Below are positions 15,745 to 55,804 of a DNA stretch of 64,000 bases, in pieces. The stretch's first letter is position 1. The number at the start of each line of letters is the position of its first letter. The position numbers and the translations under genes were made by a program. The notes beneath the pieces are model-generated. The model did not search any database. It saw only the letters and a list, made by a program, of their open reading frames with translations, and had not been told where the DNA came from. The DNA is from Catajapyx aquilonaris. Lineage: Eukaryota. The stretch covers positions 1 through 64,000 of the forward strand of contig JYFJ02000131.1 of the NCBI GenBank assembly GCA_000934665.2, written 5' to 3'.

Positions 15745-15776
15745 CTGAGGTACTTTTTCTTGTACCACGGTTCCAT
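15745..15776 (-). CDS. Possible PDE4 micro first coding exon using a GC-AG intron
   Basis: ctgATGg start, MEPWYKKKYL, then CAG|gcaagt (the consensus GC donor), phase 2, 309 nt upstream of the UCR1 acceptor. Confidence 0.5.
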
Positions 15777-18211
15777 CAGGTACGGGCCTTATGCTCGCAA
15801 TACATGTTTTCAGCTGCGTAGATCAGTTTATCAGCATGTTATCAGAAAACACGAGTATATCTAGTAGTCGTTACATTGTTCCCACTTTTGCAATGCGATT
15901 TCCTCGTGATTAGCAAGATAACTGTGGCATTCTTGGAGGGGGATGATTAACGACAGGGCATAGTGCATGAAATATTATACATATAAAAATTTAAATATAC
16001 CCGCAGGTCGTGTAGGAATCTGGTCTATAACGGACAGTGTTAAATAACTTGAGCTTTCCGGTTCGCACCCGGACCCACCTTTTAGGTTTATTGAGCTTGA
16101 GACGAGTCTGCGCTCCACATCGAAGTTCGTCCATCTTAAAAGTACACTCCACGCCCTTTAATTACGAAACCTTTTTCGGCAGACCCGCACGCAATCCTTC
16201 CTAAACCACCATCCATAGCAAAAGGGGATATAAAAATCCTCCATCTCATCGATCCAGTTTTATCATCCGATCGATGCTGATGATAGCTCGTAAAATATCT
16301 GACACCGTAGGGTTGCGGCACAGGTTTTTTGTTGTTGTTGTTGTTGGCACAAACTAACACTCGCAGCAAAAACAAGGTTCACACAACAATGCACAACAGA
16401 ACAGACCGAAGAGCTGCACCATCACTAACTGGCCAGCTCCAACGCGTCACTAACAGAGGATGACCTCATTATTCGGGCAGATCGAAGCCTAAAAGCCGGA
16501 ATTGTAGAACTTGATATTAATCAGTTTTATATGCCAGCCATGTGCATTTTCATGACCTACAATGGAAATCGGATCAGCCATGTTGGGTTGGCAGGGAAAT
16601 CCAACGTGGATTACAAATCAGGGTTGGAGGGGGCCAAATATTTTATTCAAACGGTTTTGGAAATGTAAAGAGGTGTCTGGATCACCGAAGCAGGAAGCGG
16701 GTTCAATACATGTCATTAACTTCTAAATAACATTGGACTTATCAGAAGAATTTGCGATCGTTGCGACATACCCGACACTTGATTCAATAGTTTTGCTCGA
16801 ATAAATTTTCAGGCAATAAATGTCGTTCCAACCCGAAATGAATTTTGCAAATTAAGCAGTTTCTTTTCGGGGGGTATGAGGCAGCCGAATTTCTCTGCTC
16901 CATTTCCTCGCCGCTTTGTTTTGTGCAATTACATAGATCTTCATGGTTAATGGTTGCGGGCGTGGTCGGCAACCGGGGATCGACACAAATTACTTCTCGC
17001 GGTCGTTTGCTGCAAATAAACACGCCTCTTTTTTTTACGTATAGGCATGTTGGAATCTATTATTATTCCTCAGATCAAATAGATCGTATAATTCCCAACA
17101 CACGTTTCTGAGCATGACTACAAACAATGGGGGCGAAATCAATGTTCGTGTCGCGTTATCATCATCTGTCATGATGAATGTGGAGGAAAATGACACGCCG
17201 GGATTATAGCTTCAAATCAAACTGATCCCTATATACACACACGTTCGAAATTTTGATGTACCCTTTTTCAAGCTCTGCGAATCTGTCGTTTTTTTAAATA
17301 TTTGGAAATAGACCGAATCGTGTGCTGACGTAGCAACTTGGGCCTTTGATAATCCATATGATCTGTCCTCAAGATCTGCGTCTCTGCTGCAGATGACAGC
17401 TTTGATACTTCGGAAGGACAAATCCGATTTCATTCACGGATTGAAATCAATAAACAGCCTTATGATTTTTATCGTGATAAGCTGCTTCCTATAGTATGTA
17501 GATTATTCCATTTTCAAAAATTGCTAAAATCCATAACAATATAAATGCAAATGCTCAATTTACATATTTTTAGTTGCTGATTACATGTAAACGTGATTTA
17601 CAACAAAAAAAAACCTGCTGTGAATATACGCTACCATTGCTTCGAGGGAGTGTGATATACTCGATGACACACACGCCTGACTGGAAGTCCCCAACGTGCC
17701 TTTATCCAACTGAAAAGTTTTACACGCGGGAATTCCTGTGATACATTCCTGTTGCAGAGTACGTTTAGGGTCGTTCACACCAACCTGGTGCAGATTTTAA
17801 ATGAAAGAAAATTCACATGACCACCAGGTTACATGTTCGTAGCAACCAAACTATGGTCCAGACATGCAAGTTCACCGGTGTTTGTTTCAACATATCAAAC
17901 ACGATTGTATCGCCAGGTCGCAGCACTTCCAGCATCACTACTAGGCCATGCAGTTTTAATGACAGGCTACTCGTATTCTACCTCTGTACAGCGTTATTTG
18001 AGCATAATCAGGTTACAGCGGGACAACATCCAGTGCAATAGTCATAAAGCAACAGTTAATAGCAAAAGGGGGGCCTCGCATTGCCAAATTAGCCCATCCA
18101 GGACCGTTGGCGTGACCGGCAATCCACTGCGTAAACATATTCAACACGTTCTCCATCTCCTCCACAAACACCAAGGGGCCGGGAATCGCCTGGCACCTTT
18201 TCAGAGATTAC

Positions 18212-18414
18212 CTGGTCCCTCTCCGATGCAATCTCCTCCTCTCATCTGGCCTGCTAACCCTTCGGATATGGCTCCGAGAGGACAGCCTCCTTCTCCGGGG
18301 CACATCCAGATCGATCCCTCGGGGCCAACCATTCGAGGGTTCCACGAAAGTCAGCTGAGGTTGGCCTCTGAACAAGGACCAAACGGACCACAACAAGATG
18401 GCCACACTCAGCAT
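18212..18414 (-). CDS. PDE4: PDE4 alternative first coding exon, hydrophobic N-terminus plus Arg-rich tail (candidate)
   Basis: aaaATG, MLSVAILLWSVWSLFRGQPQ...VPRRRRLSSRSHIRRVSRPDERRRLHRRGT, then a phase-2 donor CAG|gtaatc (67 codons + 2 nt). In-frame stop upstream; GC-rich. Confidence 0.65.
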
Positions 18415-18546
18415 TTTCCGCGCCAAAAAATGGCGACCACCTGACGCTATCCCAGCCGCATGGCGTCGCTTAGTGTCCGTCGATAGAGGACTGACCTCAG
18501 GTCAGAAGGGTCACGGTACGACACATAAGGTCGCATCGTCCCATAC

Positions 18547-18602
18547 CTGAGGTCACATTGGCATTTTTGGGAGACTGACCGGAAAAGGTGGCGGATCATC
18601 AT
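18547..18602 (-). CDS. Possible PDE4 short alternative first coding exon
   Basis: gtgATGATG, MMIRHLFRSVSQKCQCDL, then a phase-2 donor CAG|gtatgg (18 codons + 2 nt). Confidence 0.5.
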
Positions 18603-21600
18603 CACAAAATTATCATATTGTGAATCACACTGTACGTATTTTTATTCGACACATTCTTTTTTTGACCCCATGTTTTTTCAGTCCAACATTCGTGGTCCCA
18701 ACTCTGAGGGTAACCGCACCAACTGGCTGTTCAACACAGGAATTTTTGAACTCCAGTTATGAGTACAGAGATCAATAGTGTACTTCAAAGCAGGCATGTA
18801 TGACTGCTTATTTTTGAGCTACGCAAATTACGCTTTGAGCAATGGAACCTAAGTACTTCGTACTTGTCATCAAAGAACTTGGGTTTTAAAATGCCTCTTA
18901 AAATGCCTGGTAAAAAGCTCTCTCCATTATCAATCGAAAGCAGCGATCCACGAAGCCAATTATTCTGGAAGTGTGATTGGGTAGTTAGTCACTAAGATAT
19001 AGCAATTTCTATGAGAGGCACGCTTCCATGGTATATGTTAGTAATACACTTGATATATTTTTTTCCCGACAGCACACTCGAACCCATCGATTTCCTTCTA
19101 CTCACGAGTCAATACTTGGCCAAAAAACACATTAAAGCTCTTAGCCAGGGGCTTCACATGACGAGCAGTACAATTGAGCAGAAAGCTCGTGGAAATGAAA
19201 ACTAAATGGTGAGCCCAAGAGAACATTCTGTGGATGCAGTGGAGGTTGGCCTCTGAGTTCATTTCGAGCCAGTCGGGCGTGAAAGAGATTTCGGGGGCCG
19301 CTTTGCAACGGTTCTAACTGATCGTTAGGTAAAGCAGCATTAGCAAAGAGTTTACGAACTTTAATTTAATTTCTGGCTAAATAAAGGTGCTCAGGAGGAG
19401 CAGCAAAAGTTGCAAAAAATTTCACTTTCTGTGTAGTAAACAAGTTGGAAAATTTGTGTGCTCAGCAGGAGAGAGCTCTGAGAGTAATTCGGGGCTGGCA
19501 TTGACTAAGTTTGACTTCCCAAGTTATATAATAGCTCCGTGCAGTCTATTGTCAGCGACTTGGAACAGACATAGGCTGACAACAACAGGCAGATATATTC
19601 CTGGTGAGACGTTCCCAATTCTCCGCATCATTTCGGCTTATTATGTCAACTATGTAGCAAATGCACGCCTCGTTGCTGCAGACCGGAATATGGCAAGGAC
19701 CAGAAACATGCAATCCAATAACGCAAACAAGATAAATAATTTCCCCCCCATTCCGCAACGGTGGTGTTTACTCTTCAATGTTGAACTTCCTTGAATCAAT
19801 ATCCGCGACAAAATTAGGAATCGAAAGGTGCTGATTCAACATTATGTCCCACACTAAAAGTTCATCAATCTGAAAAGACGCCTTCAGAGATTTCTGGTGA
19901 AAGTTGTGGAGAATCTGAGCAGAAAGAGCTTTAAATTGATATGGTGCAGATTATGCAAATATCAGGCCCAAATTAAATATTTATCGCACTACTATTAATT
20001 ACAAATATTAATTTTCTGCATGTTTGTACTTCACATAGAGTATTTACACTCTGTAAGGCTATTTTAACATTATTTCTTTTTACAAAATAGCCTTGTTTAA
20101 AATTATCCGAAAAAATCAGCACAATTTTATTAACATTTCAGTTTCAATTATAATTAATTTCTGCCATTTTTGCTCGAATAAATCCCAATTTTTCTACGTC
20201 AACATTATAACCACGACGAATGGATCGCAATATTAACAATCCCACCCGACTGAACCGCATTTCTCAGCGTCTTTCCACCCTGGAAGAGACAGCATGTCGC
20301 ACTGAACTCTTATCCGTGACAGATGAACCATACCCCCCTTTGAGGACATCCCAACCATGTCCAGCACCCACCGAAACTCGAAAATGGAAATTCCTTTCTC
20401 TGTGTTTCTCCACGCCCTTCTTCCAAAAACTTTGCGCAGATTATACTCTTAGACGTTCCAAGTCACGATCCATTGGATTAATTGAGCTTTTCAGGGCTGG
20501 GCTGCTTTGACACCGACGCCATCAAAGAGCAGAAAATCGTGTACTGTAAGACGCATAGCACGTTCTGGCTACGAGAATCTAAGGAATCTGCTCTGAGCCG
20601 CGTTCCATCGTACCCAAACCGACCGAAACTAAAGAGCTAAAATTCCTCAGGCACGTATCCGGTAAAGTGTACATCAAAAGTGCATAAAGCATGCAATGTA
20701 TGGTCTGGAGGCAGTGATGAAGTCCGTTTACACAGCCGGTATAACCTCCCCAGTTGTTTCAACAGTGTGAATAAAGACCAGTAGTTAATTTGCTTCCAAC
20801 TTGTGCGAGTTGCTCGCACCAGTAATGACGCGCCATTTTTACAGCAAATATTTGCAAAAAAAAATAAAATCCGCCACCTTTTCCGCTCGTTTTCCAAGCG
20901 TGAAAAAAAAACAAATTCACTAACTTCACTAACTGCACTTGTTGAGCCGGCTGATATCAACACTGTACTCCGAAACGGCGCTTGCTCCGATAGGAAACAG
21001 GCAAATGCGAGGGAGCCAGGCTCTGCTAGGGTCTATAAGAGCTATCCCCCACCATCCCCCCTCCACTTCCATAGCACCCCCATAGCACCCCCAACCCTAC
21101 CACACCCACTGTCGAAACTCCACCCCACAATCGATATCGAAATCTTGAGCACCCCCTGAAAACCAGCAAACCATACTACAATCTTCCCTAGGGACGAATT
21201 AACCCCCTCCAGCATTTCATATTTGGCGCCATTTCTGCGCAGCGAGCGCGATTTTTTTTTTCAGGTTAGAATTGGTCCGAGTCCAAGCAAACCAATCAGG
21301 AAACGAATTTACTGCAAAATGTTGTTACGCCGACAGGATTGGATTGCCACAGGCTAAGTTAAAAAAATATATACGGCAAGTTACAACTGATTTTAATTAT
21401 TGCATTATTCGCACACTTTTTTTTGTGTGGTGTGGCGGGATCATTCAGAAGTGTCGCAAAAGCATAGATTTCGTGACAAAGACGAGGGCTCTGGAAACTT
21501 GATGTATAATTCATTGCGCTTTTCATTACCCCGGCTTTCATCTCTTGAAGAGTCGTGAAATGGAACTTTTGGCTCTTTGTAGACACTCGTCCACAGTTAT

Positions 21601-21978: not shown

Positions 21979-22043
21979 CACTCGCAACATTTCAATTCGG
22001 ACCAGCAGCCGCCATAATATTGACAATCACCTAATGAACACAT
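21979..22043 (-). CDS. Possible PDE4 Cys-rich short first coding exon
   Basis: MCSLGDCQYYGGCWSELKCCE, then a phase-2 donor GTG|gtatgt. Splicing to the common exon gives ...CCEC-FDVENG. Confidence 0.4.
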
Positions 22044-24334: not shown

Positions 24335-24474
24335 CTGAAGACCTGCGCGCACGTAGGTGTCGGAGTCCTAGTCTCCCTGTACCATATGACTGTTCCATGT
24401 CTCTTGAACTTCTTCAACTCAACAGTCTTCACTTGACCTAGTAGCGGCGAGGACTGATTTTTCTTCCTGAACAT
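24335..24474 (-). CDS. PDE4: PDE4 alternative first coding exon, basic N-terminus (candidate)
   Basis: gccATG with an upstream in-frame TAG, MFRKKNQSSPLLGQVKTVELKKFKRHGTVIWYRETRTPTPTCAQVF, then a phase-2 donor CAG|gtaaag (46 codons + 2 nt). Confidence 0.62.
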
Positions 24475-25969: not shown

Positions 25970-26014
25970 TGACTTTTCGAAGATATAGAAAGTGATTCTA
26001 TCTTCGAAAAGTCA
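25970..26014. repeat. Short inverted repeat (hairpin)
   Basis: tgacttttcgaaga-ta-tagaa agtga ttcta-tcttcgaaaagtca. Confidence 0.75.
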
Positions 26015-26518: not shown

Positions 26519-26709
26519 CTGGGGCAAGGCGAATAAACTGGCAGACTCAAACTCCTGCCAACCACAACAATCCTCTTCCCTTTTGGATGCTGTCTGTCTC
26601 TCAGTAAATGCAAAAGCGGTCTCTGTCCAATCATCTTGTTTTGCTTCATCTCTCGGTACGCCCCAACCTTATAAAGCTGCTGCAAGTCCGCACATTCTTT
26701 ATCTTTTAA
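26519..26709 (-). CDS. PDE4: PDE4 isoform-specific exon with its own acceptor (candidate)
   Basis: Acceptor cttctttttttag|. Fully open frame LKDKECADLQQLYKVGAYREMKQNKMIGQRPLLHLLRD...SLPVYSPCP (ATG at 26649), then a phase-2 donor CAG|gtaaga. Confidence 0.6.
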
Positions 26710-27079
26710 CTAAAAAAAGAAGTTGGGGGGCTTCCAGCAAGGGCCCAAGAAATTTAATAAAGTGCGTCGTCTTGAGGCGTAAACTTCTTTAATTGCGTTA
26801 TTTATGCGTTGTAGTCTGCAGACGTGTTTCTACGAATCAGATCCGGAGTTGGCGAAACTGCGCAGATCATTTTGCGGTCCGGTACTATGCCGCAATGTGG
26901 CAAATTTTGTACGAAAAATTTCGTTGCACTGATAACCTTGAGCGTACGGTACACAGGACGGAAACGGTTTCAAGGCCAGTTTCGTAAATAATGTAATTTT
27001 TGTCAATATCTACCACGCACTTTTTTTTGGTATGTGTACTAACCGGAGTCAATGCTCCGGTACGTAACACAGCACTCAC

Positions 27080-27181
27080 TACACTGCGGCTTCATTACCG
27101 CGAATCACGAAGCCATCCTTCGCCTTCACACGCACGGAATTATTTGGCCGGCCGCTAGTGGGAGCCGGCTTTAAATATATG
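27080..27181 (-). promoter_or_regulatory. Possible promoter and short non-coding leader exon for the 26519-26709 exon
   Basis: TATA-like catatatttaaa at about 27170-27181 on the minus strand, a GC-rich stretch, then donor GTA|gtgagt at 27080. This would give a 370-nt intron to the 26709 acceptor. Confidence 0.35.
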
Positions 27182-28177
27182 GAAAGAAAAAAAAAATTGT
27201 AATACACACGGTGGCGCCAGCGTCGTGGGAAAATAAACCCGCCCGGTCAAACAACCAATCCTGCCACGTTACAAATCTATCCCGCGCATTGTTGCAGAGA
27301 CGGATCGACCAACAACGGACACTTTGATACACCCACCTGCAGGCTTCTCAGGCCTACAACTGGCATGGGCCGTCCGTCCCCCCCTTTCCCCTCCCCGCCT
27401 CTCCCCACCAACCATCTTGGGGCTTTTACTCCACCTCTCCCCACCCAGACCCCCCACCAGGTAAAGGCTTGGACGACCGCAAACATAATCATGCTAAAAC
27501 ATACCAAGTTGTTTTTTTTGTTGCGAAATGTCGAATGTAAATTGCACTCTATATGTTAGGATGAGGCTATTGTGGTGCAAATGTCTGCAGGGGGTTTTTT
27601 TTTGGAGGAGAGTTTGTTGATGAGGGTGATATTGAACTTCATTGATTGCTATAGGAGCCTCCAGGGTTATCAGCCGTTTATTAGCTACAGTTTCAAGCCG
27701 TTTTGTAAACATTAGACAAGTTTAGACTCAGAACAAAACTATCAAGAATCTTCATTTTCTTACACAACTATATACACATAGCTTTGTGGAAGATTTAGAG
27801 CCTGGATTTTATACAAATAGGACCTGGAGCAGCTCTTAGTAGTGTTGCAAACAAGACCATCGACACCGCCTATAGCTGTTTTTGTCGTTTGCTAATGAGG
27901 GAAGAGTGTAAGAACCTGAAGAGGACCCCCGTTTAATTTACATGCGTCTCGCACGTCAATCTAACCAGGACCCCTCTGGTTTTCCACTCAGGGACTGCAT
28001 TTAAGAGGGCTCCTATGCACATAGTAAAAGGGGCAATCAGATGTTGTTGTTTTTTTGTACATATCCAAGGGCCATGACCTAGCATATGACCTAAACGGTT
28101 CAAAATTGTATAGGAATTTTGACGAAAATTGTACGAATTGTGAGGCTTGCCTGCGTGTGACCGAAATCCCATCCCCG

Positions 28178-28194: not shown

Positions 28195-28622
28195 CCTGCG
28201 AGACAAAAGGTGTTACGGAAACAATCCCAGCTGGAGTGTCGTCGACGGGATAAACGGATTAATAATTAGTCCAACCGAGAGGAAAGGCTAGATTGTGCCA
28301 GTCCCGCCCGCATGAATAAGCAGCGTCCAAAAGCCTCCTCATTTCACTTTAGATTCAATCCGAACCTAACGTCTCCTCGGCTCGGTTCTACAGCCTATAT
28401 TCCTGCATGCGAGGCATCAGATCGATTCGAAATGTGACAAAGCGCAAGGACGGAACTTTATGAATTAGCCATATAGTTTGGCTGCCCGTTAGTTACAACC
28501 TCCCCACCTCATTGGCCTGATGGTCGGTGATCTTGTTCATATTTTACGTGCATGGAAAACCCCCTTGGTATTACTCAAATTCGCTAATGCTAAATTAGCT
28601 GTCAGGACACACTCGCAAGTTT

Positions 28623-29972: not shown

Positions 29973-29998
29973 TTCTTCTCGACAGCAGAAATGCCCAT
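29973..29998 (-). CDS. Possible PDE4 micro first coding exon
   Basis: acaATGg, MGISAVEK, then a phase-2 donor GAA|gtaaga. In-frame stop just upstream. Short enough to be chance. Confidence 0.3.
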
Positions 29999-33282: not shown

Positions 33283-36200
33283 GGGATTTACTACGAGCAT
33301 CTGGACTTCATGCATCGAAGAAAAGTTCATTACTGCAACTTGAAGAATTCTCTCCAAAATTGGATTGGACAGAAAGCATATTGGATATCACATTCTTCGG
33401 ACACTTCAAAGCCTGCTGATCATTCCAGCACAATGGCGTACGAAAAAAAAAATCTCATGATTATTTTTTTCCGCCTCAAGAGGACATGACAAAATTGCAC
33501 TTCTTCTCCCGCCTATTTTTCATCAGAAGTTATTATTTTATTCATCGTCCTTACGTCGCTTCAGCAACACTGCATCAAAAAAATGGCTATTCCCTAGCTA
33601 GCTCCATCGTCATCATTCATGCAAGTTTTATTAGCTCCTTCAGATTAAAAATCCCTTCGGCCCGTCTTTTTTTTTTTGCGCATTCCTAAGCCCGCTAGAG
33701 GGAGATTGTAATGCAAAAAATTTCAACCCAGCTCCTCCAACGCACTAATAATTAATGCAAATTAAAACGTGACTCTTCATAATGTGGCGAAAAAATATCA
33801 ATGACCTTGCAATCAATTTGCAAAAAAAAAACTTCGCACCACCGCCTGTTAAAATTCACCTAATGTAAATTCCACCCAACACATTATTGCAAGAGTACCT
33901 AATCAATGAACATGCATTCGTAATTATTATCGCCGAGGTTGCCAGATAAAGTGGGCTGTCAGGTACACGCTTCCGTTATGAGCTGCCCCATACGTATGAA
34001 GTGGTAATCAACATTTTGGGTTGTGTAACAATGTTGATCTATTTTTTTTGTTCTATGCGGTTTCACAATTAATTAGTCTGGGCCAAGTTGTTCTAGCCCC
34101 TGGTTTAATCAAGTTGGTTTATAATGAAACTGCGAAGGTCTGGTTAGGAGATAATGGTAATATTATCTTAATGTTGGTTACGTTACTTGTTGTCAGTAAT
34201 GTACGATTTGACAAAAAACGGGTCGTCGCCATTTCCAGGTGAGATTAAATCCGCTGCGAAAATTTGGCAAAAGCAAATATTTGTTCGCGGTAAACATTGC
34301 ACAGCGCACCTAAATTGTGAAGAGGCGTGGTTTGCGCAAAAAAAAAAAAAGGATTGCAGTAACTGCTCTTGACATCTGCTTTGTAACCCAAGGCAGTAAT
34401 TGCAGCATGCGGATTACGCCTCATAAAAACTCCCAAAATACAGTAGGTGCCAAAAATTACAGGATCGCTTGATGTAAACCCAATTTTGTACCTGCTCCGA
34501 AGCTTTAATTGGTCCAGGAAACGACAAAGTGGCGTTTTGGACGGACTGTAACGAATCAATCGAGCTACTTCCTGGCAATAAGGGCTGGGACTTGCCGAGA
34601 TTCTTTTTTGCAAGGTAATATAATTAATGTCTCTGAGGATGGTGAGGGGGATGCTGCGAGGATTTGGGTTCCCGGGCAATTCAATTACATGGGAGATGAT
34701 TAGGGCGGGGCCTACCCTGGGCCCACAGGAATAAGGGGCCCCCACGGTCACATTTATGCGGCCAAGACCTCAGCACCGTCCATATACACAGCAAAGATAC
34801 ACAATGGCCTATTGTAACCGGATATTGGCGTGTAAGGTGTTAGCTTTAAAATACTGCACTGCGGTGTAGGCCTTTGATGACACATTCCCTTTTTGTGGGG
34901 GGGTTATTAAATTATGGAGCTGGACGGCTGCTAAATTTTAAAATGCGAAATATCAGGCGTCATAGTATATTAGCCGATTGCTGTTATGATATGCTAATAT
35001 TGACGTGATTACACATAAATTAATAAATATTTAATTTTGTGGTGAAATGGAATGTGAGCATTTCAGGCTGCCAGACTCTGTGTTTCAAAAATAAATAGAG
35101 TGCCACCATATCGTGAGTGGTCCTGGCTCTTTTAAAATATTCATGTCATCATCTCACTGCGACATGAATTTTCATTACGAAATGCTTCCAGACAGCCCTC
35201 TTCATCTTCATTTCTCCCTCTACACCAATGATTGTATTTTTTTTTGTTGCAAAATGACTTCTGGTTCTCACTCAGGCGAAATTGTAGACACAGTGCAATA
35301 TGTGCTTTCACTACACTACTGCCTACGCTAGCTGAATGCACAGGACATGACCTGTGCACATATTTCAACTACTTCCTCACTCTTCAGGGGCAAGTGACCT
35401 GTGAGCTTACACCCGATAGATCAATCCCCGCACGTGCAAAACAGTCTCTCAAGTACTGTCAACGCAAATGACCTCGGCCAAGAGAGAAGCAGCAGAGAGA
35501 GAAAAAAACAATGCGACTCCCGGACATATATTGAATGATGCCCATTTCCCTTTCATGCCCACTTGACGCCTACAGAGTGCGCAAACACTAATGGCCAATC
35601 TGGACCCTGACAATAGGCTGCCCATTTTACGACTCTTCCTCTCCAAACAAGCACAGCTATCTTGTTGAGTTACGACTCTTCTCTTTTTCCACTCCGGTTT
35701 CCTCACCCATTACTGCATGACTGTGCAACCAGCCAGTTATTTGCTCAACATGATGTGCATGACACCTTGTAATATACAGGGTGTTTCAGAATCAATCAAA
35801 CATTTAGTTCCTAGTTGGTAACAATCATTATGAAACATCTTGTGTGTTACGGTATATGCATCTGTTGCATGTAGCTTCAAGGCAGATTATATCCAAGTGT
35901 TAATGCAAATATTGGGAAACAATTTCGCTTTGTGCGGTAAGGTTGCTTGGCCGAATTCGCAATTTTAAAGAATGTCCATTTCCCGTCTCTTGCAGACTTT
36001 AGTTTCGCTCAGACGATCCCCACAATTCGTAGGGAAGAGTTCACTGCGTTTAATAAGCTCTAAAAATGCCCTGCTGTCATATGCAAGCACTGCACCAGCT
36101 CTGTGAGTTTCCCATACACCAGCCGACCTTTCCGAAAACCAGGAGGAAACAGGAGGCTCATTAGGTTAAAAAGGAGGGGTTTATTTGAGAAACAGCATAT

Positions 36201-37572: not shown

Positions 37573-37921
37573 TTGAAAAACACGCTGTCGCTGGCCGTTC
37601 TGGAAATGACCAATTTGGGAAAAATAGCTGTCCTTCCCCCTCTAGTCCTCATAGTACATGTGGTCGCAGTCATAGGTCTCTCAGGACTAGGACTCATAGA
37701 CAGGGGACTCACAATGGTCAGACCTCGAGAGTGACCAGGTACTGAGAGGTTCAAGTTCAAAGGTGGCAGAGATGGCGGTCGGCGTCTCCTCGGCAAAGTT
37801 TGGTTGAGGTCAAAGTGTTGCTGCCACATGGTCACAGAAGAGGTCACGACCTCAGCCTCCTCATGTTGTCCCATGTTGTCCTTCACTTCGGACATGGCCG
37901 TGACTTTTGGGTCACTGCCAA
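37573..37921 (-). CDS. PDE4: PDE4 isoform-specific N-terminal exon (candidate; PDE4B1/D7-like)
   Basis: Acceptor tattttcctcag| at 37921, gccATG at 37895, and an open frame MSEVKDNMGQHEE...LPRRRRPPSLPPLNLN...RPMTATT...IFPKLVISRTASDSVFF ending at a phase-2 donor CAA|gtgagt, in frame with the UCR1 exon. Confidence 0.75.
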
Positions 37922-39100
37922 CTGAGGAAAATATATCCGGTCCAATGTATAACCAGAGGTATATTTTTGTTAACACTTTATTCCTGAGGGATTTTTTATG
38001 GAAATATTGGCGGCGGTTGTGGATTATATTCTAACTCTCGAGTTTGGCCTTGCTGCGCGCAAAGTTTACAGCTGCTAATCGATGAAAGTCCGGGAATCAA
38101 TACGTGTACTTTCCGAATTTCATATGCGGCCTACAGTTTCGAAATGAATGTATTGCCAATGTTATGTTAACTCACAGTATCTGCTGACGCAATTTCTGAT
38201 CAACACGTGTGTTCACTAGATAGACCTCATCAAAATTCAATGTTCGTTTAATTTAGTAATTTTATCTACAACGTCTAAAATAACTGTTATACTGTATATG
38301 AAAATAACTACTTAAAAGTCATCTCAATAGTAACATTTCGTGGCCACGAAATTTTTGAAACCAAGTTTGATCTCAATTTTCGGGCCCCCACATTTGATAT
38401 GCAGAACTTGCTAATTACAATCGGCATATTTTTGAAGCCGCAATGCTACTGATGTGTTAAACTCTTTCCGCGAAACAAATTTCTGGCCCACCACGCCGCG
38501 AAACGTAATATCGGGGAGCGGCGTCAAATCTACGCACTATCCAATTACAGGATTAATGAAATGGCAAGGACCAAAATTAGTGGGTTCCAACCTAATTGCT
38601 CCAAGTTAGCCCCAAATGCATCACCCCCCACTTACAGCCCAACACGTAAACAAAACTGACTTTCGTACACCCGCCTCTCGACTACTACTGTAGCCTACTA
38701 TAAACACAACACCTTGCTCAATAGTCTTTATCGCAATCGGGACCTGTAGTATTTCCTCCGCGATAAACAGCCGTAAATATTGCGCAACATATCGTGCTCC
38801 TATACGATTTATTATGATTTTATACAGTCACAATTCGGTGTAATTTTCCTGTTTAACTGACACAACACGGTCAAATTTGTCCGCACTTAGCACTACCTGT
38901 ATATCCGTGTGGCTTATTCCGCGATATTCCTGGAAGTGCGATAGAGGCCACCTGGAGCTATTTTCCCTCCTGCACACACTGGTGGTGAAGATATACATAG
39001 TACAATAATACATGCAGGCTCACATCTGGGGCGGAGTCATGCTATAAAAAAAATTCATCTCGTCCGTTCTGCAAAATTAGGGTGTACATTGTACAACAAC

Positions 39101-39108: not shown

Positions 39109-39756
39109 CCACCTCTGATTATACATTCGACATTTTCGTATGAATAATTTCACGCGATTTGTAAAATTGTGTGAGAACATCGTATAGTGAGAACAGTTTT
39201 TGTGTGCATGTGTGTTGAGAACACTTGTCACACATCACCCACTCACAGACACGCACTTCAGCAATGATCCTTCTCGTTTCCACATCCTCGCTGCAGTGTT
39301 CGGGGGTATAGCATTAGACCAAGCGACGAAGCGGAGAGTATACGTTGCTCTAGCCACCCCCCAACCTTCCCCCACCCAGCATCCCTCCCTCGCCCTCTAT
39401 TCCCTGTACATTTCAACCAACCAACGGTCCTCACTTTCCCATGCTCAAATCTCTCTACGTGAACAAATATTCCAGGGGGTGAAATTGACACTTTCATGCT
39501 CCGATTGTTATGGCGCTTTTCTGCAGATAAGCGGATTCAGGGGTGGGGTTTTTAAAAAGGTCCATTGTTAGTTGAAGTTAATGCTGATAAGTTTAAACAA
39601 TCCCGCACACACATGTAAGCCAGAATGTGGGCATTAAAATGGGCAATAACAAACAGTAGTCGATGCAGGATTTGAAATATGCCTATTTCAAGCGAATTGT
39701 CGCGACATTAAAAATGAAACTATTTTCAACAATGACTCTACCTAAATTTTCTGTAG

Positions 39757-43562: not shown

Positions 43563-43690
43563 TATATAAATTAAACCGAATTGAGCGTAAGTCGTGATTG
43601 CAGATTTCAAGTATTTCTGCTCAATGTATAATGTAATGTAAAATTATGTGTACAACTAGATTTGATTTTGAACTGTGCAATATTAATGTA

Positions 43691-43840
43691 TACTATCGGG
43701 TTCAAATACTTTTGGCCACTTTATCCTGGTCTTGAAGCATCCCTTCGCACAGACCCCACGTTGAGGAGGTGTGTGTGTCTGTGTGAAGGGATGCTTCAAG
43801 ACCAGGATAAAGTGGCCGAAAGCATTTGAACCCGATAGTA
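43691..43840. mobile_element. Fold-back (palindromic) MITE, copy 1
   Basis: About 64-bp near-perfect inverted arms tactatcgggttcaaat...gaagcatcccttcgcacagac / gtctgtgtgaagggatgcttc...atttgaacccgatagta around a short loop. Confidence 0.85.
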
Positions 43841-44361
43841 CATGAAGATATTATTTGTATCCAGTTTGCAGGTATTTTTTCTATGAAGAGTACGCTGAAT
43901 ATAAATCAAGCCCAATGTAACTGCTACTGAACTGATCGCTTCTATTTTCTCATCAAAACTGCGATCACCGCTAGTCCAAACATGACCGTACATTTCTTTG
44001 GCCCCCTCCCGAAGCGTGGAGTGGACGTGACCGAATCTGTTGCGTCCTCCTGCTATGCAGATATGGTCTCCACTCGAGTGCCACCTGCAGGAGCTTTTTC
44101 ATCGAGAGAGAGCTCGTCCCATTGATTCAGGCGCCAGAGACACCTGTAGAGTTTCCGGGGAACAATTCGAGCCAGACGAGCCAGCTGCAGCAGCACCCGG
44201 CACTTGAAAGCTAGCCTCACCTCGAAGCCAAAGAGCGTACTACGACTCTCTGTGCTCTGTATACAGTGTCGGTGCAGCATATACACTGCGTACAGATGCG
44301 GCACAAGTCCAACCAAATCACCTGAGGTTCTCTCGCCGGGGCGCTTTTTGCCAGAGGAAAC

Positions 44362-44396
44362 ACTTACCTGAAAGGAAGAGAATACATTTGTTAAAC
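44362..44396 (-). other. Candidate recursive splice site (ratchet point), junction at 44368|44367
   Basis: The minus strand reads gtttaacaaatgtattctcttcctttCAG|GTAAGT: branch-like TTTAAC, pyrimidine tract, about 85 nt without another AG upstream, and a perfect donor immediately after the acceptor. Confidence 0.7.
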
Positions 44397-44799
44397 ACGG
44401 TGATAAAATAATGTAGAGTATCAAATAATAAATATTTGCACATTTCACGTGAGTTTCTAATCCCCCTGTACAGACGTGTAACATTGAACCATGTGGCTTT
44501 GAGGCCATCCGGAATAAATAGCAGCACATGTCGCCATGAGCTACCATGTGGTCCAGAACAAGGCGCCTGAACGTGTCTTTTCGCATATGTTCCACAAAAT
44601 AGTTGGAGAGCTGTTGGGGCCTTTCGTTGGATAAATGCAAAAACTAAATGCTAAACAGTAAACCACATTCCACTGCAAAAAATTACTGTAATGAGAGTTT
44701 AAACATGCGATGTAGGCAGACACCGACATTGACTACGGATTTGCAGTTCAACTTCATGTGCCCTACAGTTTACGTAACAATATTCATTTCAGCGCATGA

Positions 44800-44845
44800 T
44801 CCCCCCCCCCCCTGAAAGCANNNNNCCCCCCCCCCCCTGAAAGCA
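44800..44845. other. Assembly gap (NNNNN at 44821-44825) with duplicated flank
   Basis: poly-C + tgaaagca occurs on both sides of the Ns, consistent with an unmerged contig overlap. Confidence 0.9.
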
Positions 44846-44861
44846 GATTAACAATGAAGAA

Positions 44862-44997
44862 GTACTATGGGCCTCAAATTGTTTTGGTCACTTTATCCTG
44901 GTCATGAAGCAACCCTTCACACACACCGTGGAGCCTGTGTGAAGGGTTGCTTCAAGACGAGGATAAAGTGATCAAAACAATTCGAGCCTCATAGTAC
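44862..44997. mobile_element. Fold-back (palindromic) MITE, copy 2 of the same family
   Basis: Inverted arms gtactatg...cactttatcctggtcatgaagcaacccttcacaca / tgtgtgaagggttgcttcaagacgaggataaagtg...catagtac. Clearly homologous to 43691-43840. Confidence 0.85.
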
Positions 44998-47900: not shown

Positions 47901-50900
47901 TACTCCCACCCGCAGCATTTTATTTGCAAGTTTCAAAAGCAACCCCCGCATTGGAATTGCCTCGATTCCGCCATTAATCATTAAACCACCTACTATACTT
48001 GTTGGCACTCCAGTGTTGATCACTATATCTTTTTTTCCCCCGAAAGCCAGTTATTCCCGCTATGTACGCAACACTGAAACGAAGGGTGCAAGTAAAACAA
48101 CACCAGCTCGCTCACACATCCTATGAACTCAGGTATAATTCACTGTGTTATTCCAATAAACATTAGCTGCATTATGAACAAAGGGTTCACACCACATAAC
48201 GATTGTACTGCGTTAAGTTTATTAAGTCGACACGCAATTGGTTACGTCCACAAACGATTCCGACACTATTTAGCATAATTTAATAAACATACAGTAACTC
48301 TCAATGTTCACCTCTATGTCTATATAAAGGGGTTTAATGTTAGCTCATAGATTTTTTTGTGCAAAATAACGTCGACTTCAAATTCTTCCGGATTCGGACC
48401 TTCCTGGAATAGGTCCTAGTGTCGCGGAATTTTGGCGGCTCTAATTTGACCCCAATCTATTCTTAGTGGCGTCCATTAACATCGGAGGTCCGCCCCTCCC
48501 TTTGCCGCAAGGGAGCCACGAAAATTCGCTTTTCTCGCAATTAGTCCGCTAATTCCTGTCCGCAGGGGTAGGGGAGGTGGGGGTATGGATGGGGAGGGGG
48601 GAGGCTGCTTTTGTGCCGACTTTGCCCGGGAATCCCCAAACCAAAATCCGGGCTCTCCGGCCTTTACCTCATCAGGGAACTCCCGCCTCGAGCGGATACG
48701 GTTTCAAAAGAACCAAATAGTAGAAGCAAACTTTTGTGCACTTTTTTTTGGAGGATAGTCTTGCTGGTGGAAAAATTGAGTTTGCCAACAACTGGTTACA
48801 TCAGCTAATAGTTCCCAGCACATTATAATATTGGTATGCCCTTAACATTGACAAATTGTGTGCTCACTGATAGTTGCAGACAGTAACAGTTTGTACTCCC
48901 AGAACAGACATCGGATAAAATCAAGCTTCAATTCCCTATACGACCATAGCATATTCGAAATTGTCGCTATAACTTTCCCTTGTTCTAGCCAAAATGCGCG
49001 TGATGTCATGAAATAACATAGTGTCTTGACAAATTCTGCAGCTCCGTACGTATAAGACATCCCATCTTCTCGCCTGACGAAACTTCTCATTTGAATATTG
49101 ATTAGTCGAAAGGCTGTCCTGAATTTAATAATGTTGCCAGTGATTTTGACTGCCACTAATTTGAGGCTGGCTCCAGTTTTCAAAATTTTCCAGGGAGTTT
49201 GCGGCATTAATGATCATTATCGGCTAGGCCTGGGCTTTACAAGTTGCATAAGCATTTAATCAAATTATTAGTGTCCCTAATCCTTTCAAAGTGAGATTCC
49301 TAATCCTCCCAGGGCAAAATGATGATCGCGTTTACCGAACTGGCATTAAGGCCCCCAGGATCAGTAATGGAAATCCGGATTTCTTTTTTTTTCCACCACC
49401 TCTTCTCTCCGGATAACAACTCGGTTGACTCGCCGAGTTCGCCTCATGAAATATATACTTTTCCTCCCCCCCTTTTTCCCAGCCTCCATTTAGCACCCGT
49501 CTCTTCTCCAGTCATTATGCAGAGTGCAATGGTACATCGATCTCTTGGGCCCCGTATCCAGGCAAACCCCAGATATTCCCAACCTATTTTGATGAGAAAA
49601 CTGCCTCTTGACGCTTCAACAACTATAACAACGACACACAGTCCTGTCATCAAGATTGCCATTGTGCAATAAACAACCTCATCCAGAAGGTCCCATTTCC
49701 ATTTAAAAATAGCTCCGATATTATGTTCTACACTTTTAAAATAGTTGATATAAAGTGCCGTTTTTGTTTAAAGCTGATTATTTCAGTAACAAGATGACAT
49801 CTCTAGACAAAAATATTCAGGAGCATACACCATAGAAAGTTGTCGGTATATTTACAAAACACCCTATTCCCCAAATGCTAGGTCGATTCAATATCCGAGT
49901 GTTAACCCAACACTCCACGAGTGTCCTGAGGCCCGTTCTCTCTCTCTAGCTCTCTAGCTCTTTTTTTACAGTCCCCATTGCGCGAGCTAGAGCTTTGAAT
50001 CAAACCGTGTTTGTTATTCCAGTCCGAATTTCGCAGGCTGAGAAAGAGCAGCGACCATTCCAGCTGTTGACGCAGCTTCACATTAATCTCCAGACGATGG
50101 CGGTGTCAACACAAGCTACACCCGCTCCACTTTTTAAAACAACAGAGCATGCCTCGGCATTTTATATCTTTTAAAAAAAAACGTGCTATCCTCCTGGTTT
50201 AATCTTCGTGTCCGGGGATAAAGCTTTTTTGGGGGGCCGGATTGCACTCTATGAGCCGCATCGAGGTGCGGTTAGATCAAACACGGTCTGATAATTCGGT
50301 TTTACGGAGTTGGCATTGTCCAAATCGAATTCGAGTCCACGGCTGCTATTATAGTTGAAATGGTGGGGGGAAAATTGCATTAACATTTCAGTGGCCGACG
50401 TTATGCTCCTTTCTTGCTCATTGATGGACGCACGCGCGTTGTGCTGCTGCGTATAAATGCAACCTGAAATTATAGCCTATTGCTTTTCCAACAAATTGCA
50501 CATTGGAATTTATACGGCACGAAAAAAAATATTGCCAGGTGAAAAACATTCCTCGCAAAATTAGGCACAATAATCCAAACAATTTGCAGCAAATAATTTT
50601 AACTTTGAGTGCATAGATTCCGCTTTAAATTAGCATACGTACATTTCCAATCATTTTTAATTTTTAAAACATTACAATTTGACATCCCGTTATCGTCAGT
50701 GGGATAATTTCGGTGCTTCATTGTTTTGATTGACAAAAGTTGCAATTAGTTAGGTTGTGTCGCAGCTGCTCAATATCTATGGTTGTGCTGTGTGGCGGGG
50801 ATTGTGCTTTTGCAGAAGAAGAAGAAGACATTTCTTTCGATGAGACAATTCCCGGAGCCGGATTCACGAGCTGAATAATTCCGGACTTGATCCAATCATT

Positions 50901-52783
50901 AGACTGAGACAAAAGTTTCCTCCCGAACCTTCATTTGAAGGGAAAGGGAGCGGAAATTCGCAACGAGGGGGGAAGGAAAAGACATGGTTTTCAGGTCTTG
51001 CTTTTCGCAATATGCAAGTAGTGTAGGCTTGCAGTAAGTCTTTCTTCAAGCCCCTTCCGCAAGATTGTTTTCCTCCGCTCAAAAACTTTGTTTTCTCATG
51101 TTGAGACGCAGTAAAGTTAATTACTGTGCGCTACATTTTGCCATTTTTGTGCATATCAACTATAATTGCTTCATTTAATATCGATGTGCAATGCATTATC
51201 TATGGACAACTAATTGTACCACAATTAACATTTTGGAGATATTTTGGCGAACCACTGTATGAAAATTTAAATCGTCGCATTTGGTGTACCTTTCAGGTCC
51301 AATAAATCGGTTGTCAAAACGTGCAAAAGGTCATCATCACCCCCATTGTGATGACAACTATTAATAAAACCGATTATTTCAGCCCCCGAGAAGTCAGACC
51401 TGTCAACATGTATTGCCACTCTGCATGTGACCTTGAATGTTTTAAAATTTCTGCTATACAAAAACCTTACAGGACCTTTTTCAGTCGTGTGTGCATAGGC
51501 TGACTAGATGCTATGAGGTGAAGAAAATTTATGGACGCCGCCGACTTCTTCGAGTGCTTCTGATGCCGCTGCATGTTTGGCATTCCGACAGGGAAGCAGG
51601 CCAACTTTTTTTTTTTACTTCATCTATTTGGCCACTTGTAGAAAACATCGAGAGAGACTAGGATACGTCAGAAATAGAACAGTCGGACCTGGGTGCAAGT
51701 ACACCGCGCGAATTGTATAGTATACAACACCCAGGTTGACAGGGATCTTTGCATCACCCTGTACCTTTATAATGAATCCTGGGCTAATAGCTCTTTGACT
51801 AACGGTAAGTCGTTATAGGCTCGTAAATAACTCGGGTGTTGCAGCCAGCATCGGTTATATAGCCCGTAATAAAAATGCGTCACACATGTTTGACGCAATG
51901 TTTTTGCAGCTTTTTTAATATGTTAGTGTCATCGTACATACTCGGCTCCAGAATAGTTGCACGTTCAATCATCCGAAACCTACTTTTTTATTCCGGAGGC
52001 TTCATCTTGGCAAATGTTGGTTCCTCGAGAGACGTAGCTCATCATTTGGGACCTGCTATCTCATGTTATACAAACCGAAGTGCTGCGCCTTCAACCCTTT
52101 TTTTATGTCCCGTGCTGCCACCTTGCAAAAATGAACTTTTTTTTCCATGCAAATGCACAGCCGCCTACGAATAAATTTACATTCTCCTTCCCTGTCAGCT
52201 TTTCCCATTAAAACGTAAATGGCGCTCAAACACTGAGCCAGATTACTGACCCTGCCAATTTTTTACCTCCCCATTTTTTTTGGCACAGTGCGACACACCG
52301 CGCAAAAACTGTCACACTGTCCTTGAACAATCCACATTCATCACCGTATACTGATTCTTAAAAAAATTAAATTAAATTTTCTTAACAGCTTTTAATTTAT
52401 CGTGAAATTAAAGTAGCAGCACTACGGTCGGGTTTCACCAACCTGGTTAAACTTTAGAACCGTCGTAATAACAGGAATTGTCGTAGCAACCATTGTTGAC
52501 AACGATCAATAGTAAACATTTTCCGACAAGAAGCTCGGATTTATAAATTATAACCTGCTTGGTGAAACCGGCCATAAGTGTAGATTTCAAGTAAGAGTCA
52601 ACAAAATACTTAGGCTCAGCTTGAACTACTGTAAATTTCCATGAACTGATTAAAATATGCCATAATTTAAACGAGCTGAAGTCAAAAACCGAGTTCAATT
52701 CAATCTCAAGTAAAAACTCAAAGACGAAAATAACTCAAAAATATTTTAGTGTATCTTCTTCTTGAACTTGAGCATTGCCTCAC

Positions 52784-52944
52784 CCTGTACATTCCCTATA
52801 GGCCTTGACGTCCCATACACCAAAGCCACAGTATCGTATTCCTGTCGTACATCCGCCATCCTCATAATATGTAAGGCTATATCTCATATTCTGGAGCTCC
52901 TCTATTTGCAGCCACGCCTTAGAAATTTTGGAGAGGGGAATCGC
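52784..52944 (-). CDS. PDE4 isoform-specific exon with its own acceptor (candidate)
   Basis: Acceptor ttcctttcccag|. Open frame AIPLSKISKAWLQIEELQNMRYSLTYYEDGGCTTGIRYCGFGVWDVKAYRECT (ATG at 52887), then a phase-2 donor AGG|gtgagg. Confidence 0.52.
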
Positions 52945-55508
52945 CTGGGAAAGGAATTGAGGGACAGACACGTTCCATGCGGGCAGAGAGTGGATGAGAT
53001 GAGAGTAGAAGGTACTAGAGAGAGATTCTCATTTCTATTCTTTTTTTTCCCCCCGTCGTCTTCCTATCCCGACACCAAACACAAGGCCCCGGAAGAGACG
53101 AGCAATCACTTTTCATGACGCCTGCGAACTTCTCATAACCTGGATGGTTCCTATAGCTCTTTTCTCCGGATCTGAATCGATAGCTTCCAACCACAGAAGT
53201 GCAGAATCAACAGTGTGTACTCAGGGCAGCAGGGTCAAGGTGAAGGTTTGTTAAAACAATCAACGGATTTAATTTTCCAAGAAATATACTGAACCATGTG
53301 GTTAGAACTACGCCAGAAATTTCGGAGCAACGACCTCTGGACCAATCAGTTCCGACCATCTTGCGTGCAACTTGGCAGTTATTTTGAAAGCTAAAGTCGC
53401 AGCTACTTGAAGATAAACCCGTAAATAGAATGCACTTGTGAGTCTAGTTCACTACAGGTCATCAGAATGTTTCATTTTAATCAAAACCATTCTATGATGT
53501 AATATGCAAAATAGACAAATCGATATTGCCAAAATCAACCAGGGGACAAGCCTCAATATTCCTTCCAAATTCCTCCCTGATTTAGGCGTCTCCCGAGCAC
53601 AAATTCACTAAAACTGATGACACCGAGCCTATTACGTTACCCTATAGCACTGCCTAAAGACAAGCCAATTACCATTGCAGGGCCCCGCCTGTGACGTCGT
53701 TGAACCATGCAATTTGGTGGGGAAATGAAGAACTGCGGACAAATGACAATCACCACAGTTTGCGAATCTATACCCGCCCATTCCGACTGAAAAGTGCAAA
53801 CAAAAAAATATACCCTCGCGGATTCCTCTCTTTTTTTTTGTACCCATGCACAAACGCTGAAAAGAGCGTGGCTCGACCCTAATTACCCAATATCGACTTT
53901 CCATTAGGCAGCGTTTGACCGACTTCTTCAATCAGCTATACGTATGTAGTTGCAGGGATCCACACACGTGGCGCTTCAGAAACGTAATGTAACAATAATG
54001 AGCAAAAATTCCACTAATATTAGCTAAAAGGCTTATTCTCTCCGTCTGGTGTTTGTCCGATATGATAGTATCGCTATCTCTCGCACAGTGGCAGGAGTAT
54101 GCAGAGGGAGTATGCGCCATCTATGCGTAAAGAATAATACTACGTGGTAAATCGGCGGGCCATCTAATTAAAGTTGATTGTCACTGTCATACTGATTACA
54201 AATTTTGGCAACGGGTTCAATAGTTATTAGTTAATATTCTGCAGCCTCTAAAATTATCAGTTTCAAATATTCGTTTCCCCAAAAAAATAATTCAATTGGA
54301 AGAGAACGTGGCATTCCGGATACGTGTTTGGAGACTTTTGGTCCGTACAGGGTTGTGTTTTCACCGCAAAGTGCAACATCCACCGGAATTCAATTGCCCG
54401 GAACTGTTGATAGAAGCGTTTTCCCTAGATATCGTCAAGGGTTAATCATGCAGAAGTTTCTCGACTTGTTGGGAAATGGTGGGCTTCAGGGGCTGTTTCT
54501 CTGAAGCGGCGGTGTTTTAAACAAAGGGAAGCGGGCACACAATTGGCGAGGGGGAAATTTTCCACATGCAATAGTCACAACATCGGTTGGTGTCACTCCA
54601 AGAATTTTTTGGAGAGGCTGAAGCTGGGCCAACTGCTAGAGAGCTAAAAGTCGAAAATGCAAGGATCGTAACCTTGGCCTTACGCAACAGACACAACCAA
54701 TTGCATTTCTGCATTCAGCTTTGTTGAAAGTTCACACCGAAGCTGATGTTTTCCATTGTGACGCAAAATGCGTTAGTGACAAGCTGTTTATTGCAGGTGA
54801 CGCAAATTTTCCCAGATTGCAATATAATTATTGTTGTTAAGAATGTAAGCCGATTAATATCCGACACATCACGTACAGTAGCTTTCACTGAGTCTGTTTC
54901 ATACTGAAGCAAAGCTACTTACTATAAGCCGTCATAATGATTTTTTTAAAAAACCTATTAGTATTGCGGAGCTGCGTACTCGAAAATAATAATTCGTTTT
55001 AAACAGGCACTTTTCCATCGATCTACGTCAGACCCTTTTTGAATGATTAATATGGGAAGAACTATTAGTCACACAACAATATCGACATTGCAGTCAGGCA
55101 TGACAAGCTACATGAACTGTAATGCACAAAATAATAACTGTATGTGCGCATATAATATTAATAACGCCGAGAATGATATCCACGCCATTTTGCTGAAAGG
55201 TTGAAATAATCTAAAATAATCTCTGCCAATATGAATTTCGCATGAAATTTGCAAGGATCGCATCATACGTTCAGTACATGCTTTTATCATGAGTCATCAC
55301 ATGGTACTTAAAAACAATTTTAAAAAACATGCTTTTATCATCAATTATATGCTGTACGCGACATGTAGCAACAAGCACCTGACTGTCCCATCTATTCTAG
55401 ATGTCGCTGGAATGCCCAGCACAACCCCATTTTAGAAACAAAGTCGAAGTTGATATTTTGCTTGCCAGACCCTATTTTTTAAGCTGGCAAAACTCAGCTG
55501 GCATATAC

Positions 55509-55804
55509 CTCAAACACCTCCTGAACAAGTCGTGTTGCTTCTTCGTTTCAGCGGATCTGACACACTGAATGTTCCTGGACGAAGTGGTGGTGCTTGTGGA
55601 CGTCGAAGAGGACACGACCCTCGACGAAAATTGTACCGTTTTGGTTTGGCACGACGACTCTTCCTCTTTGATGCCCTCCATCATACCCATGACCGAATCG
55701 TGCTCCAGAAAACTCGGCGAACTGTGCGAAACAGTCATCTCTCGCTTCATTTTGGACTGATGCCTCCCAGCCACTATCTGGATCCCAGCACGCTTTGTCT
55801 CCAT
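55509..55804 (-). CDS. PDE4 alternative first coding exon, Ser/Thr-rich (candidate)
   Basis: aaaATGg, 98 codons METKRAGIQ...VVSSSTSTSTTTSSRNIQ...HDLFRRCL, then a phase-2 donor GAG|gtatat (weak to moderate). GC-rich and coding-like. Confidence 0.55.

Follow-up and report, generated by a model that had tools for sequence, protein, structure and literature searches.

The window analysed here, 64,000 nucleotides (nt) from the forward strand of contig JYFJ02000131.1 (positions 1 to 64,000) in the Catajapyx aquilonaris assembly GCA_000934665.2, is the 5′ portion of an arthropod gene for a PDE4 (dunce-type) cyclic AMP (cAMP) phosphodiesterase; the gene lies on the minus strand. Besides one constant exon, which encodes the N-terminal block of UCR1, the window contains over 15 kb of the intron that follows and 48.5 kb of sequence upstream. 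A first-pass annotation had placed about ten alternative first coding exons in the upstream sequence, named here by the position at which each ends (Table 1). We consider it likely that three of these (18212, 24335 and 37573) are genuine 5′ exons feeding the shared UCR1 exon and that the other seven are mostly products of chance.

The constant exon begins behind a polypyrimidine tract at the acceptor at 15435 (ttttgcag/T TTC GAC GTG GAA AAT GGC, minus strand) and ends at the donor GAAGG/gtaagt after 15256, so that its 180 nt comprise one codon-ending base, 59 full codons and the first two bases of another. When translated, the exon matched 4006 proteins at an E-value (E) ≤0.001 among 4050 candidates; nearly all of the 120 matches listed were named cAMP-specific 3′,5′-cyclic phosphodiesterase, PDE4 or dunce, and the full-length homologues listed carry PF18100 and PF00233. 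The 59 amino acids (aa) show 93% identity to the transcript-derived protein P0005 and 90% identity to many decapods, an amphipod and many insects, with tblastn also supporting the exon; no protein identical to them occurs among the matches listed. They include the protein kinase A site motif of the UCR1 N-terminal block, which places the exon within the PDE4/dunce family, and a sequence variant common to crustacean entries at a place where insects have QNLPQ, a variant that by itself would point to a probable crustacean source. The isolated 59-aa exon gave no Pfam match at E≤1, PF18100 included. No further PDE4 exon was found in 1–15255, downstream of the UCR1 exon, so the next intron exceeds 15 kb, and the optional mini-exon ‘SRVMLATLSE..’, which follows ..IASEG in several crustacean isoforms, was not detected in that interval.

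Because the constant exon opens with T, the third base of a split codon, any upstream donor must supply two bases. In 167 of 167 homologues the residue preceding FDVENG is S, D, G, R, N, H, C, L, I, P, F or T, all encodable by an NNT codon; K, E, Q, M and W occur in none. This fits a split-codon junction completed by T (‘phase 2’) that is conserved across arthropods. As had been claimed, all ten upstream segments exist, each with an in-frame ATG and no stop before a donor that follows two bases of a codon. The donor is GT in nine and GC at 15745, and the split codon formed with the T of 15435 reads Ser, Cys, Asn or Gly.

Conservation of the upstream region was assessed against a reference set of 167 N-termini, cut before FDVENG from the listed homologues, whose classes recur across orders. 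Sixteen family profiles and 24 single N-termini were searched against 3105 open frames of ≥8 codons from both strands, the plus strand serving as decoy. In a combined phmmer test, the 167 N-termini were compared with 89 peptides of ≥8 aa, each opened by an ATG and closed by a donor and drawn from both strands and all three phases, a set supplemented with two named sites missed by our donor matrix. The three best of the 89 were the 37573, 24335 and 18212 exons, all phase-2 and on the minus strand, and the next best match had E=0.03. Orthology to the N-terminus of a known isoform was therefore found for three of the ten sites and not for the other seven, which matched no better than controls. 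The three have GT donors and provide the gene with at least two unrelated, same-strand upstream coding exons in the required phase. Since they are orthologues of known isoform N-termini, the general reading of the locus as variable first exons joined to a constant region is right in kind: unrelated N-terminal exons in a fixed phase stand, three of them matching known classes, and it is the number ten that is not supported.

Exon 37573 belongs to the ‘TILSPHSP...TRRKK...LPKL’ family of long isoforms. A profile of 12 long isoforms found the frame 38030–37572, open from 38030, at E=3.6e-10, with profile positions 198–262 aligned to residues 87–150 of the frame. The conserved core, 37772–37581 (SLPPLNLNLSVPGHSRGLTIVSP...TMRTRGGRTAIFPKLVISRTASD), corresponds to the long-isoform consensus slPppaGylslsPgdRrLtiLSPHsP..tlktRrkKaivLPkLvlPrsdSd, and its Smith-Waterman score was 93 against a plus-strand decoy maximum of 51. 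Matches by tblastn came from 13 of 119 N-termini; of 48 further N-termini, 28 matched at E≤1, 24 of them at E≤0.01. Used as a protein-database query, the exon returned 203 candidates and none at E≤10, on a scale of 5.8 billion sequences that is harsh for one diverged exon. A GC-rich island coincides with this exon.

Exon 24335 was recovered by a profile of three decapod N-termini, which matched the frame 24510–24334 at E=6.1e-5; the core VELKKFKRHGTVIWYRE aligns with the family motif VKLKKFRKYDTFIWLRE, and the Smith-Waterman score was 67 (plus-strand maximum 51). A springtail protein, P0160 (VKLKKYCRYGTFAWSRE), matches at E=0.0064. The class is known from decapods, a springtail and one metagenome contig, and is absent from the insects listed. 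The metagenome contig (L002, 22.6 kb) has a UCR1 exon at 10001–10177 that is 83% identical to the window’s and carries the QAQPPRRESF variant. The same strand has, about 8.5 kb upstream at 1257–1523, an ATG-led frame, MSTGRAPKDGNGTARKFRHFGSFIWRREEK.., of the VKLKKF..IW.RE class; this frame includes the stretch ..ARKFRHFGSFIWRRE.. and has phase-2 GT sites at 1478 and 1520. Its similarity to 24335 is modest (tblastn E=0.034, profile E=0.097), yet it ranks top of 5362 frames, and the contig shows both the class and its position upstream of UCR1 in another animal. At a second metagenome locus, with an insect-like UCR1 exon 88% identical to the window’s, conservation with the window is confined to the exon.

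The 18212 peptide starts MLSVAILLWSVWSLFRG and runs from a hydrophobic start, MLSVAILLWSVWSLF, into a polybasic, Ser-rich tail. Its counterparts are the insect ‘MLTLLFLLWSLIRG...RRRRSS..RRRTTGS’ N-terminus and the decapod ‘MLSVMVSVWWAW...’ N-terminus, with related isoform starts in a cockroach (MLTLSLLLWSLFRDK) and in many beetles (MLTLLFLLWSLIRGLR or MFTILFWLWSLFRGLR). The polybasic end reads RRRRSSxRSxQxRRxTRRFPLxxDRRRTTGS in insects and RRRRLSSRSHIRRVSRPDERRRLHRRGT(S) in the window. In a start-anchored comparison of first 13 residues with four family members, the ATG at 18414 scored 38, the next best of 1295 ATGs on both strands scoring 20. The exon lies within the strongest GC island of the window (18001–18650). 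It was accepted on the agreement of start, tail, strand, phase and position, and of the three it is still the least secure. Its 15 mainly hydrophobic residues, followed by an Arg/Ser-rich stretch with several RRxS-like sites, form a composition that suggests membrane association and kinase regulation. The neighbouring candidate 18547 sits in the same GC island, 130–190 nt upstream of the 18212-exon ATG, and may be a 5′ leader or upstream open reading frame of that exon.

Table 1. The constant exon and the ten upstream sites listed by the first-pass annotation; peptide lengths are from the first ATG, and E is the best phmmer match to the 167 N-termini.
Feature	Coordinates	Strand	Peptide	Donor	Best E	Further support
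First constant PDE4 exon, N-terminal block of UCR1	15256..15435	-				Sequence read, homology
Alternative first coding exon	18212..18414	-	67 aa + 2 nt, MLSVAILLWSVWSLFRGQ...PRRRRLSSRSHIRRVSRPDERRRLHRRGT	CAG/GTAATC	1.4e-3	Start-anchored score
Alternative 5′ coding exon	24335..24474	-	46 aa + 2 nt, MFRKKNQSSPLLGQVKTVELKKFKRHGTVIWYRETRTPTPTCAQVF	CAG/GTAAAG	1.3e-5	Profile
Long-isoform N-terminal exon	37573..37895	-	107 aa + 2 nt	CAA/GTGAGT	1e-7	Profile
Weakly supported candidate	55509..55804	-	98 aa, Ser/Thr-rich	GAG/GTATAT	0.16	Smith-Waterman mean, GC island
Unsupported candidate	26519..26649	-	43 aa	CAG/GTAAGA (matrix 7.0, best of ten)	1.8	
Unsupported candidate	52784..52887	-	34 aa		4.9	
Unsupported candidate	21979..22043	-	21 aa, Cys-rich		0.91	
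Unsupported candidate	29973..29998	-	8 aa		10	
Unsupported candidate	15745..15776	-	10 aa	CAG/GCAAGT (GC donor)	0.63	
Unsupported candidate	18547..18602	-	18 aa		1.2	

The ten segments had been described as sharing no obvious similarity, and this was confirmed: in an all-against-all blastp of the ten peptides the best match, in a polybasic run, had E=0.037, and the sole blastn match among the ten exons with 300-nt flanks was the overlap between 18212 and 18547. How often such segments arise by chance was gauged by counting, throughout the 48.5-kb upstream region, every GT that scored ≥2 on a donor matrix and had an upstream in-frame ATG without an intervening stop; the matrix is a rough one, based on the metazoan consensus and not trained on this species. 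The minus strand had 30 such sites in phase 2, against 18 in phase 0 and 24 in phase 1, and the plus strand had 22, 16 and 17 in phases 0, 1 and 2. The excess, with a Poisson P of 0.015 relative to the average of all five controls and of about 0.04 relative to the same-strand pair, disappears when the three confirmed exons are set aside and 27 sites are left. Eight of the ten named sites fall among the 30; the other 22, including one at 44368 with a perfect CAG/GTAAGT donor, are equally qualified and had gone unlisted. Open frames are common as well: the window has 78 that run from stop to stop over ≥90 aa. As a class, then, the ten sites are hardly above chance, and because counts are near chance and open frames abundant, the pattern of ATG, open frame and phase-2 donor is no evidence by itself. 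The caution already attached to the list, that a random donor-like site may well have an in-frame ATG upstream, is thus borne out by the control counts, and the figure of about ten exons is not sustained, given a site count near chance and seven members without a significant match.

Of the remaining candidates, 55509 alone has any hint in its favour. Compared with what ten long isoforms have upstream, the frame that holds it, 55837–55475, has the best mean Smith-Waterman score of 2831 frames (40.4, the next scoring 34.7). In insects, long isoforms start MEEEEE..TVTLTQQ, and the candidate has something similar in an internal Met with acidic and Ser/Thr residues behind it (MEGIKEEESSCQTKTVQFSSR..); it also lies inside the GC island 55501–56150. 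Its formal scores are at noise level (profile E=7.5; start-anchored score 34 against 30; phmmer as in Table 1), and an exhaustive HMMER search with the 98-aa peptide gave 0 matches among 1.84 billion representatives. It could be an independent first exon, an upstream exon of the long isoform, or nothing. We also considered its tail (..SAETKKQHDLFRRCL) as the insect cassette ..SAETRFSRRHIS or ..TRYFRRFLS and rejected it: the frame ranks sixth of 3105 and the aligner picks another stretch.

The other six sites are unsupported yet unrefuted, since fast-evolving, lineage-specific first exons would escape comparisons of this kind. Taken together, the seven sites are mostly chance combinations of an ATG and a donor, among which one or two could be lineage-specific exons. 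A reading of ATG 15776 as running unspliced into FDVENG was discarded, the frame sizes showing no open frame across the intron. Outside the ten, the minus-strand phase-2 site at 16079 combines a good donor, AAG/GTGGGT (matrix 5.8), with an ATG-led frame of 18 aa, MDELRCGAQTRLKLNKPK. The closest of the known N-termini matches it at E=0.065, and its support is on a par with that of most of the ten.

That each listed segment besides the three conserved exons owes its combination of an ATG, an open frame and a donor-like GT to chance, within intronic or intergenic DNA, is, in our estimate, only a little short of an even bet. The control counts, the 78 long open frames, and the lack of Pfam signal, of conservation and of matches to 55509 all speak for so strict a view (Pfam scans of 52 long open frames and seven exon peptides gave no match). 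Against it, related species have more than three N-terminal classes, some of them so short and species-restricted, such as a 13-aa N-terminus in a prawn, as to be invisible to conservation tests, and the GC island at 55509 is left unexplained.

Exon 37573 raises a different alternative, namely that the long isoform is built from at least two 5′ exons, 55804–55509 joining an acceptor at 37914 or 37983 and the 37573 donor then joining 15435, which would make one N-terminus of two listed segments. Upstream of the ATGs of the 37573 frame (37895 and 37874) are AG sites, at 37983 and 37914, in the phase that a phase-2 donor needs, insect long isoforms and that of one shrimp have 190–240 residues upstream of the part matching 37772–37581, and it is to those upstream parts that the frame 55837–55475, with its MEEEEE..TVTLTQQ-like start, scores best. 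Yet the 55509 similarities are all at noise level, the best-looking acceptor (37921) is out of phase, and the 37573 frame has ATGs of its own as well as an acidic stretch, ‘HEEAEVVTSSVTMWQQ’, that might just as well be a shortened start. On balance we regard the two-exon structure as unlikely, at perhaps one chance in a handful.

The weakest alternative, that the listed segments are genuine in about ten cases, or in eight at the least, and that this one gene has the N-terminal diversity of the four vertebrate PDE4 genes together, can draw on the eight or more N-terminal classes of related arthropod genes, on the modest phase-2 excess (30 against 16–24 in controls), on the fast divergence of N-termini, which would hide lineage-specific exons from comparison, on the near-perfect donor at 26519 and on the GC island at 55509, but is very improbable given that seven of the ten have matches like those of control peptides, that the 27 sites left without the confirmed three are within the control range and 22 equal sites were never listed, that two peptides have just 8 and 10 aa and one site needs a GC donor, and that 55509 has no counterpart among the 1.84 billion representatives. 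We give similarly slender odds to a lineage-specific set of at least eight first exons within 40 kb upstream of UCR1, including 8–20-aa, Cys-rich and Ser/Thr-rich types new to arthropods; if such a set were real, one gene would reach vertebrate-like PDE4 targeting diversity through rapid first-exon birth.

Several observations weigh against our preferred reading of three genuine exons and seven mostly spurious ones. The three exons are read from genomic sequence, and their junctions into 15435 are predicted from it. Once corrected for composition, the whole-exon profile of 18212 falls short of significance (E=6.5, bias 17), the tail profile fails to find it, and the 18-residue start profile reaches E=0.096, though ranking first of 3105. 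The conserved part of 37573 starts about 40 codons past the first ATG, with phase-compatible acceptors upstream, and this exon may on that pattern be internal rather than first. Finally, seven insect classes have no recognisable copy in the window by motif scan and profiles, so either the catalogue is incomplete or exons lie beyond the window. These classes are ..RRRHSWICS, ..RRRGWTVVIGP.., MQAEQGSIG..RRHTLANVR, ..IPRRNSDF.., ..RKRTSAPQMG..RSWPVAP.., ..RRRPITLKIMPRLS.. and MGQDWC..CCPCG; a scan of the minus strand found none of the motifs RRHSWIC, RGWTV, RRHTLANV, RRNSDF, SAPQMG, ITLKI, RSESLG, LPVVL, CCPCG, DRRRT and EAIPEHE. The seven classes may lie beyond 64000, be absent from the lineage or be too diverged to see.

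With three genuine 5′ exons, the gene would be expected to work as follows. Several transcription units would start at separate upstream places, each with its own first coding exon; each such exon would end after two codon bases and be spliced to the 15435 acceptor, skipping any intervening exons, whereupon the T at 15435 would complete the codon and reading would go on through FDVENG to UCR1 and the remainder of the enzyme. Three classes of N-terminus would result, one with a hydrophobic start and polybasic tail (18414–18212), one basic (24474–24335) and one of the Ser/Pro-rich long-isoform type (to 37573), and these would send the enzyme to different places in the cell. We infer the separate promoters, the use of the junctions and the targeting role of the N-termini from the genomic sequence and from analogy with Drosophila and mammals.

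Other features of the window were surveyed. The ratio of observed to expected CpG revealed no promoter-like islands tied to exons; more informative were GC islands, defined as ≥50% GC in 300 nt against a window mean of 41.6%. Twelve were found. Because four of them fall on candidate 55509 and on the UCR1, 18212 and 37573 exons, unrecognised exons or promoters may underlie some of the featureless ones. Islands at 6851–7250, 9901–10450, 20901–21300, 27051–27600, 34501–34800, 39151–39550 and 48351–48800 have no assigned feature; that at 27051–27600 lies 400–950 nt upstream of the ATG of candidate 26519. Rfam and tRNA scans of the window gave no match.

A hairpin-like inverted repeat pairs 43691–43754 with 43777–43840 (95% complementary), and a second pairs 44862–44923 with 44936–44997 (90% complementary), the latter 85% related to the 43691–43840 repeat. 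The roughly 1 kb between them is GC-rich at 43901–44400 and holds a 196-aa minus-strand frame (44053–44643) with no Pfam match; the window’s run of five N (44821–44825) and the donor-like 44368 site also fall in this region. The whole of 43691–44997 resembles a small transposable element whose ends are structured.

Further similarities to known N-termini were rejected. The best profile and single-sequence matches after those to 37573 and 24335, at 21025–20960 (E=0.036) and 34903–34757 (E=0.072), lack an ATG and a usable donor and occur at the rate expected from 40 queries. At 28212–27991, HRSPLK resembles the beetle HRSPMKIPRRNSDF class, but a stop follows two codons later and RRNSD is missing. 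The minus-strand interval 21124–21366, with a tblastn E of 0.001 to the long-isoform region, ends ‘DFDIDCG’ (compare DFDVENG); at 21% identity and with three stops, this faint similarity may be chance or a decayed fragment. Among the database N-termini themselves, those of P0014, P0027, P0029 and P0104 end in ..FFFHFFS, ..LLLYYFS or ..FCFLFCFS right before FDVENG; they look like the translated polypyrimidine tract of the upstream intron, and hence like gene-model or unspliced artefacts and not isoforms.

The principle of isoform-specific N-terminal exons is a familiar one. Mammalian PDE4A–D have long, short and super-short isoforms that arise from alternative 5′ exons spliced to shared UCR1-containing exons. 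Their N-terminus is a targeting module, and vertebrates spread this diversity over four paralogous genes; here the same principle would operate in one gene. No homology between the N-terminal exons of the window and vertebrate ones was seen, in a comparison that covered two fish proteins. In the protocadherin and UGT1A clusters, variable first exons are tandem paralogues spliced to one constant region. The present locus resembles these in having one constant region to which alternative first exons, presumably under promoters of their own, are joined, and differs from them in that the alternative exons are not paralogues, with no protein or DNA similarity among the ten.

Closer parallels are found within the arthropods. 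Beetle and decapod PDE4 isoform sets (NCBI models) share both their N-terminal families and the junction before FDVENG with the window: in Tribolium madens, nine listed isoforms carry eight N-terminal classes directly before FDVENG, and decapod isoforms carry MLSV.., VKLKKFRKYDTFIW.. and ..SRGLTILSP.. classes. Unlike those sets, the window is without the seven insect classes, and its three shared classes are strongly diverged, at 37–57% identity over the matched cores. The 18212 exon is also like ‘isoforms N/G’ of Drosophila species, which have a hydrophobic start (MIATLFIIFAFIRAF) and the tail ..RRSSGR.RRY..RRRTTGS.

The site of cAMP breakdown within the cell is set by PDE4 N-termini, and a correct list of 5′ exons is therefore needed for annotation. 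The species appears to lack a model of this gene, of which three exons can now be annotated with fair confidence, each assignable to a pan-arthropod class. The 24335 class links decapods, a springtail and an environmental contig, and the rule of two bases plus T is invariant in the 167 homologues. The known picture of PDE4 gene organisation is unchanged by these results.

The nearest known system is the Drosophila dunce gene. According to a recent account, dunce has several promoters and at least eight transcripts, which fall into five classes by the N-terminal regions unique to each and whose isoforms differ in subcellular location (bioRxiv 10.64898/2025.11.29.691281, citing Qiu and Davis 1993 and Ruppert et al. 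2017). Any suggestion that the arrangement is new accordingly fails, an organisation with multiple promoters and N-termini being already documented for dunce and annotated in beetles. As the same source has it, dunce joins unrelated N-terminal exons to common exons for UCR1, UCR2 and the catalytic domain; the window repeats this pattern, as read from the genome, with three recognised classes where dunce has five. The locus works like dunce, as a set of unrelated exons and not as an array of duplicated cassettes, and its architecture is not new.

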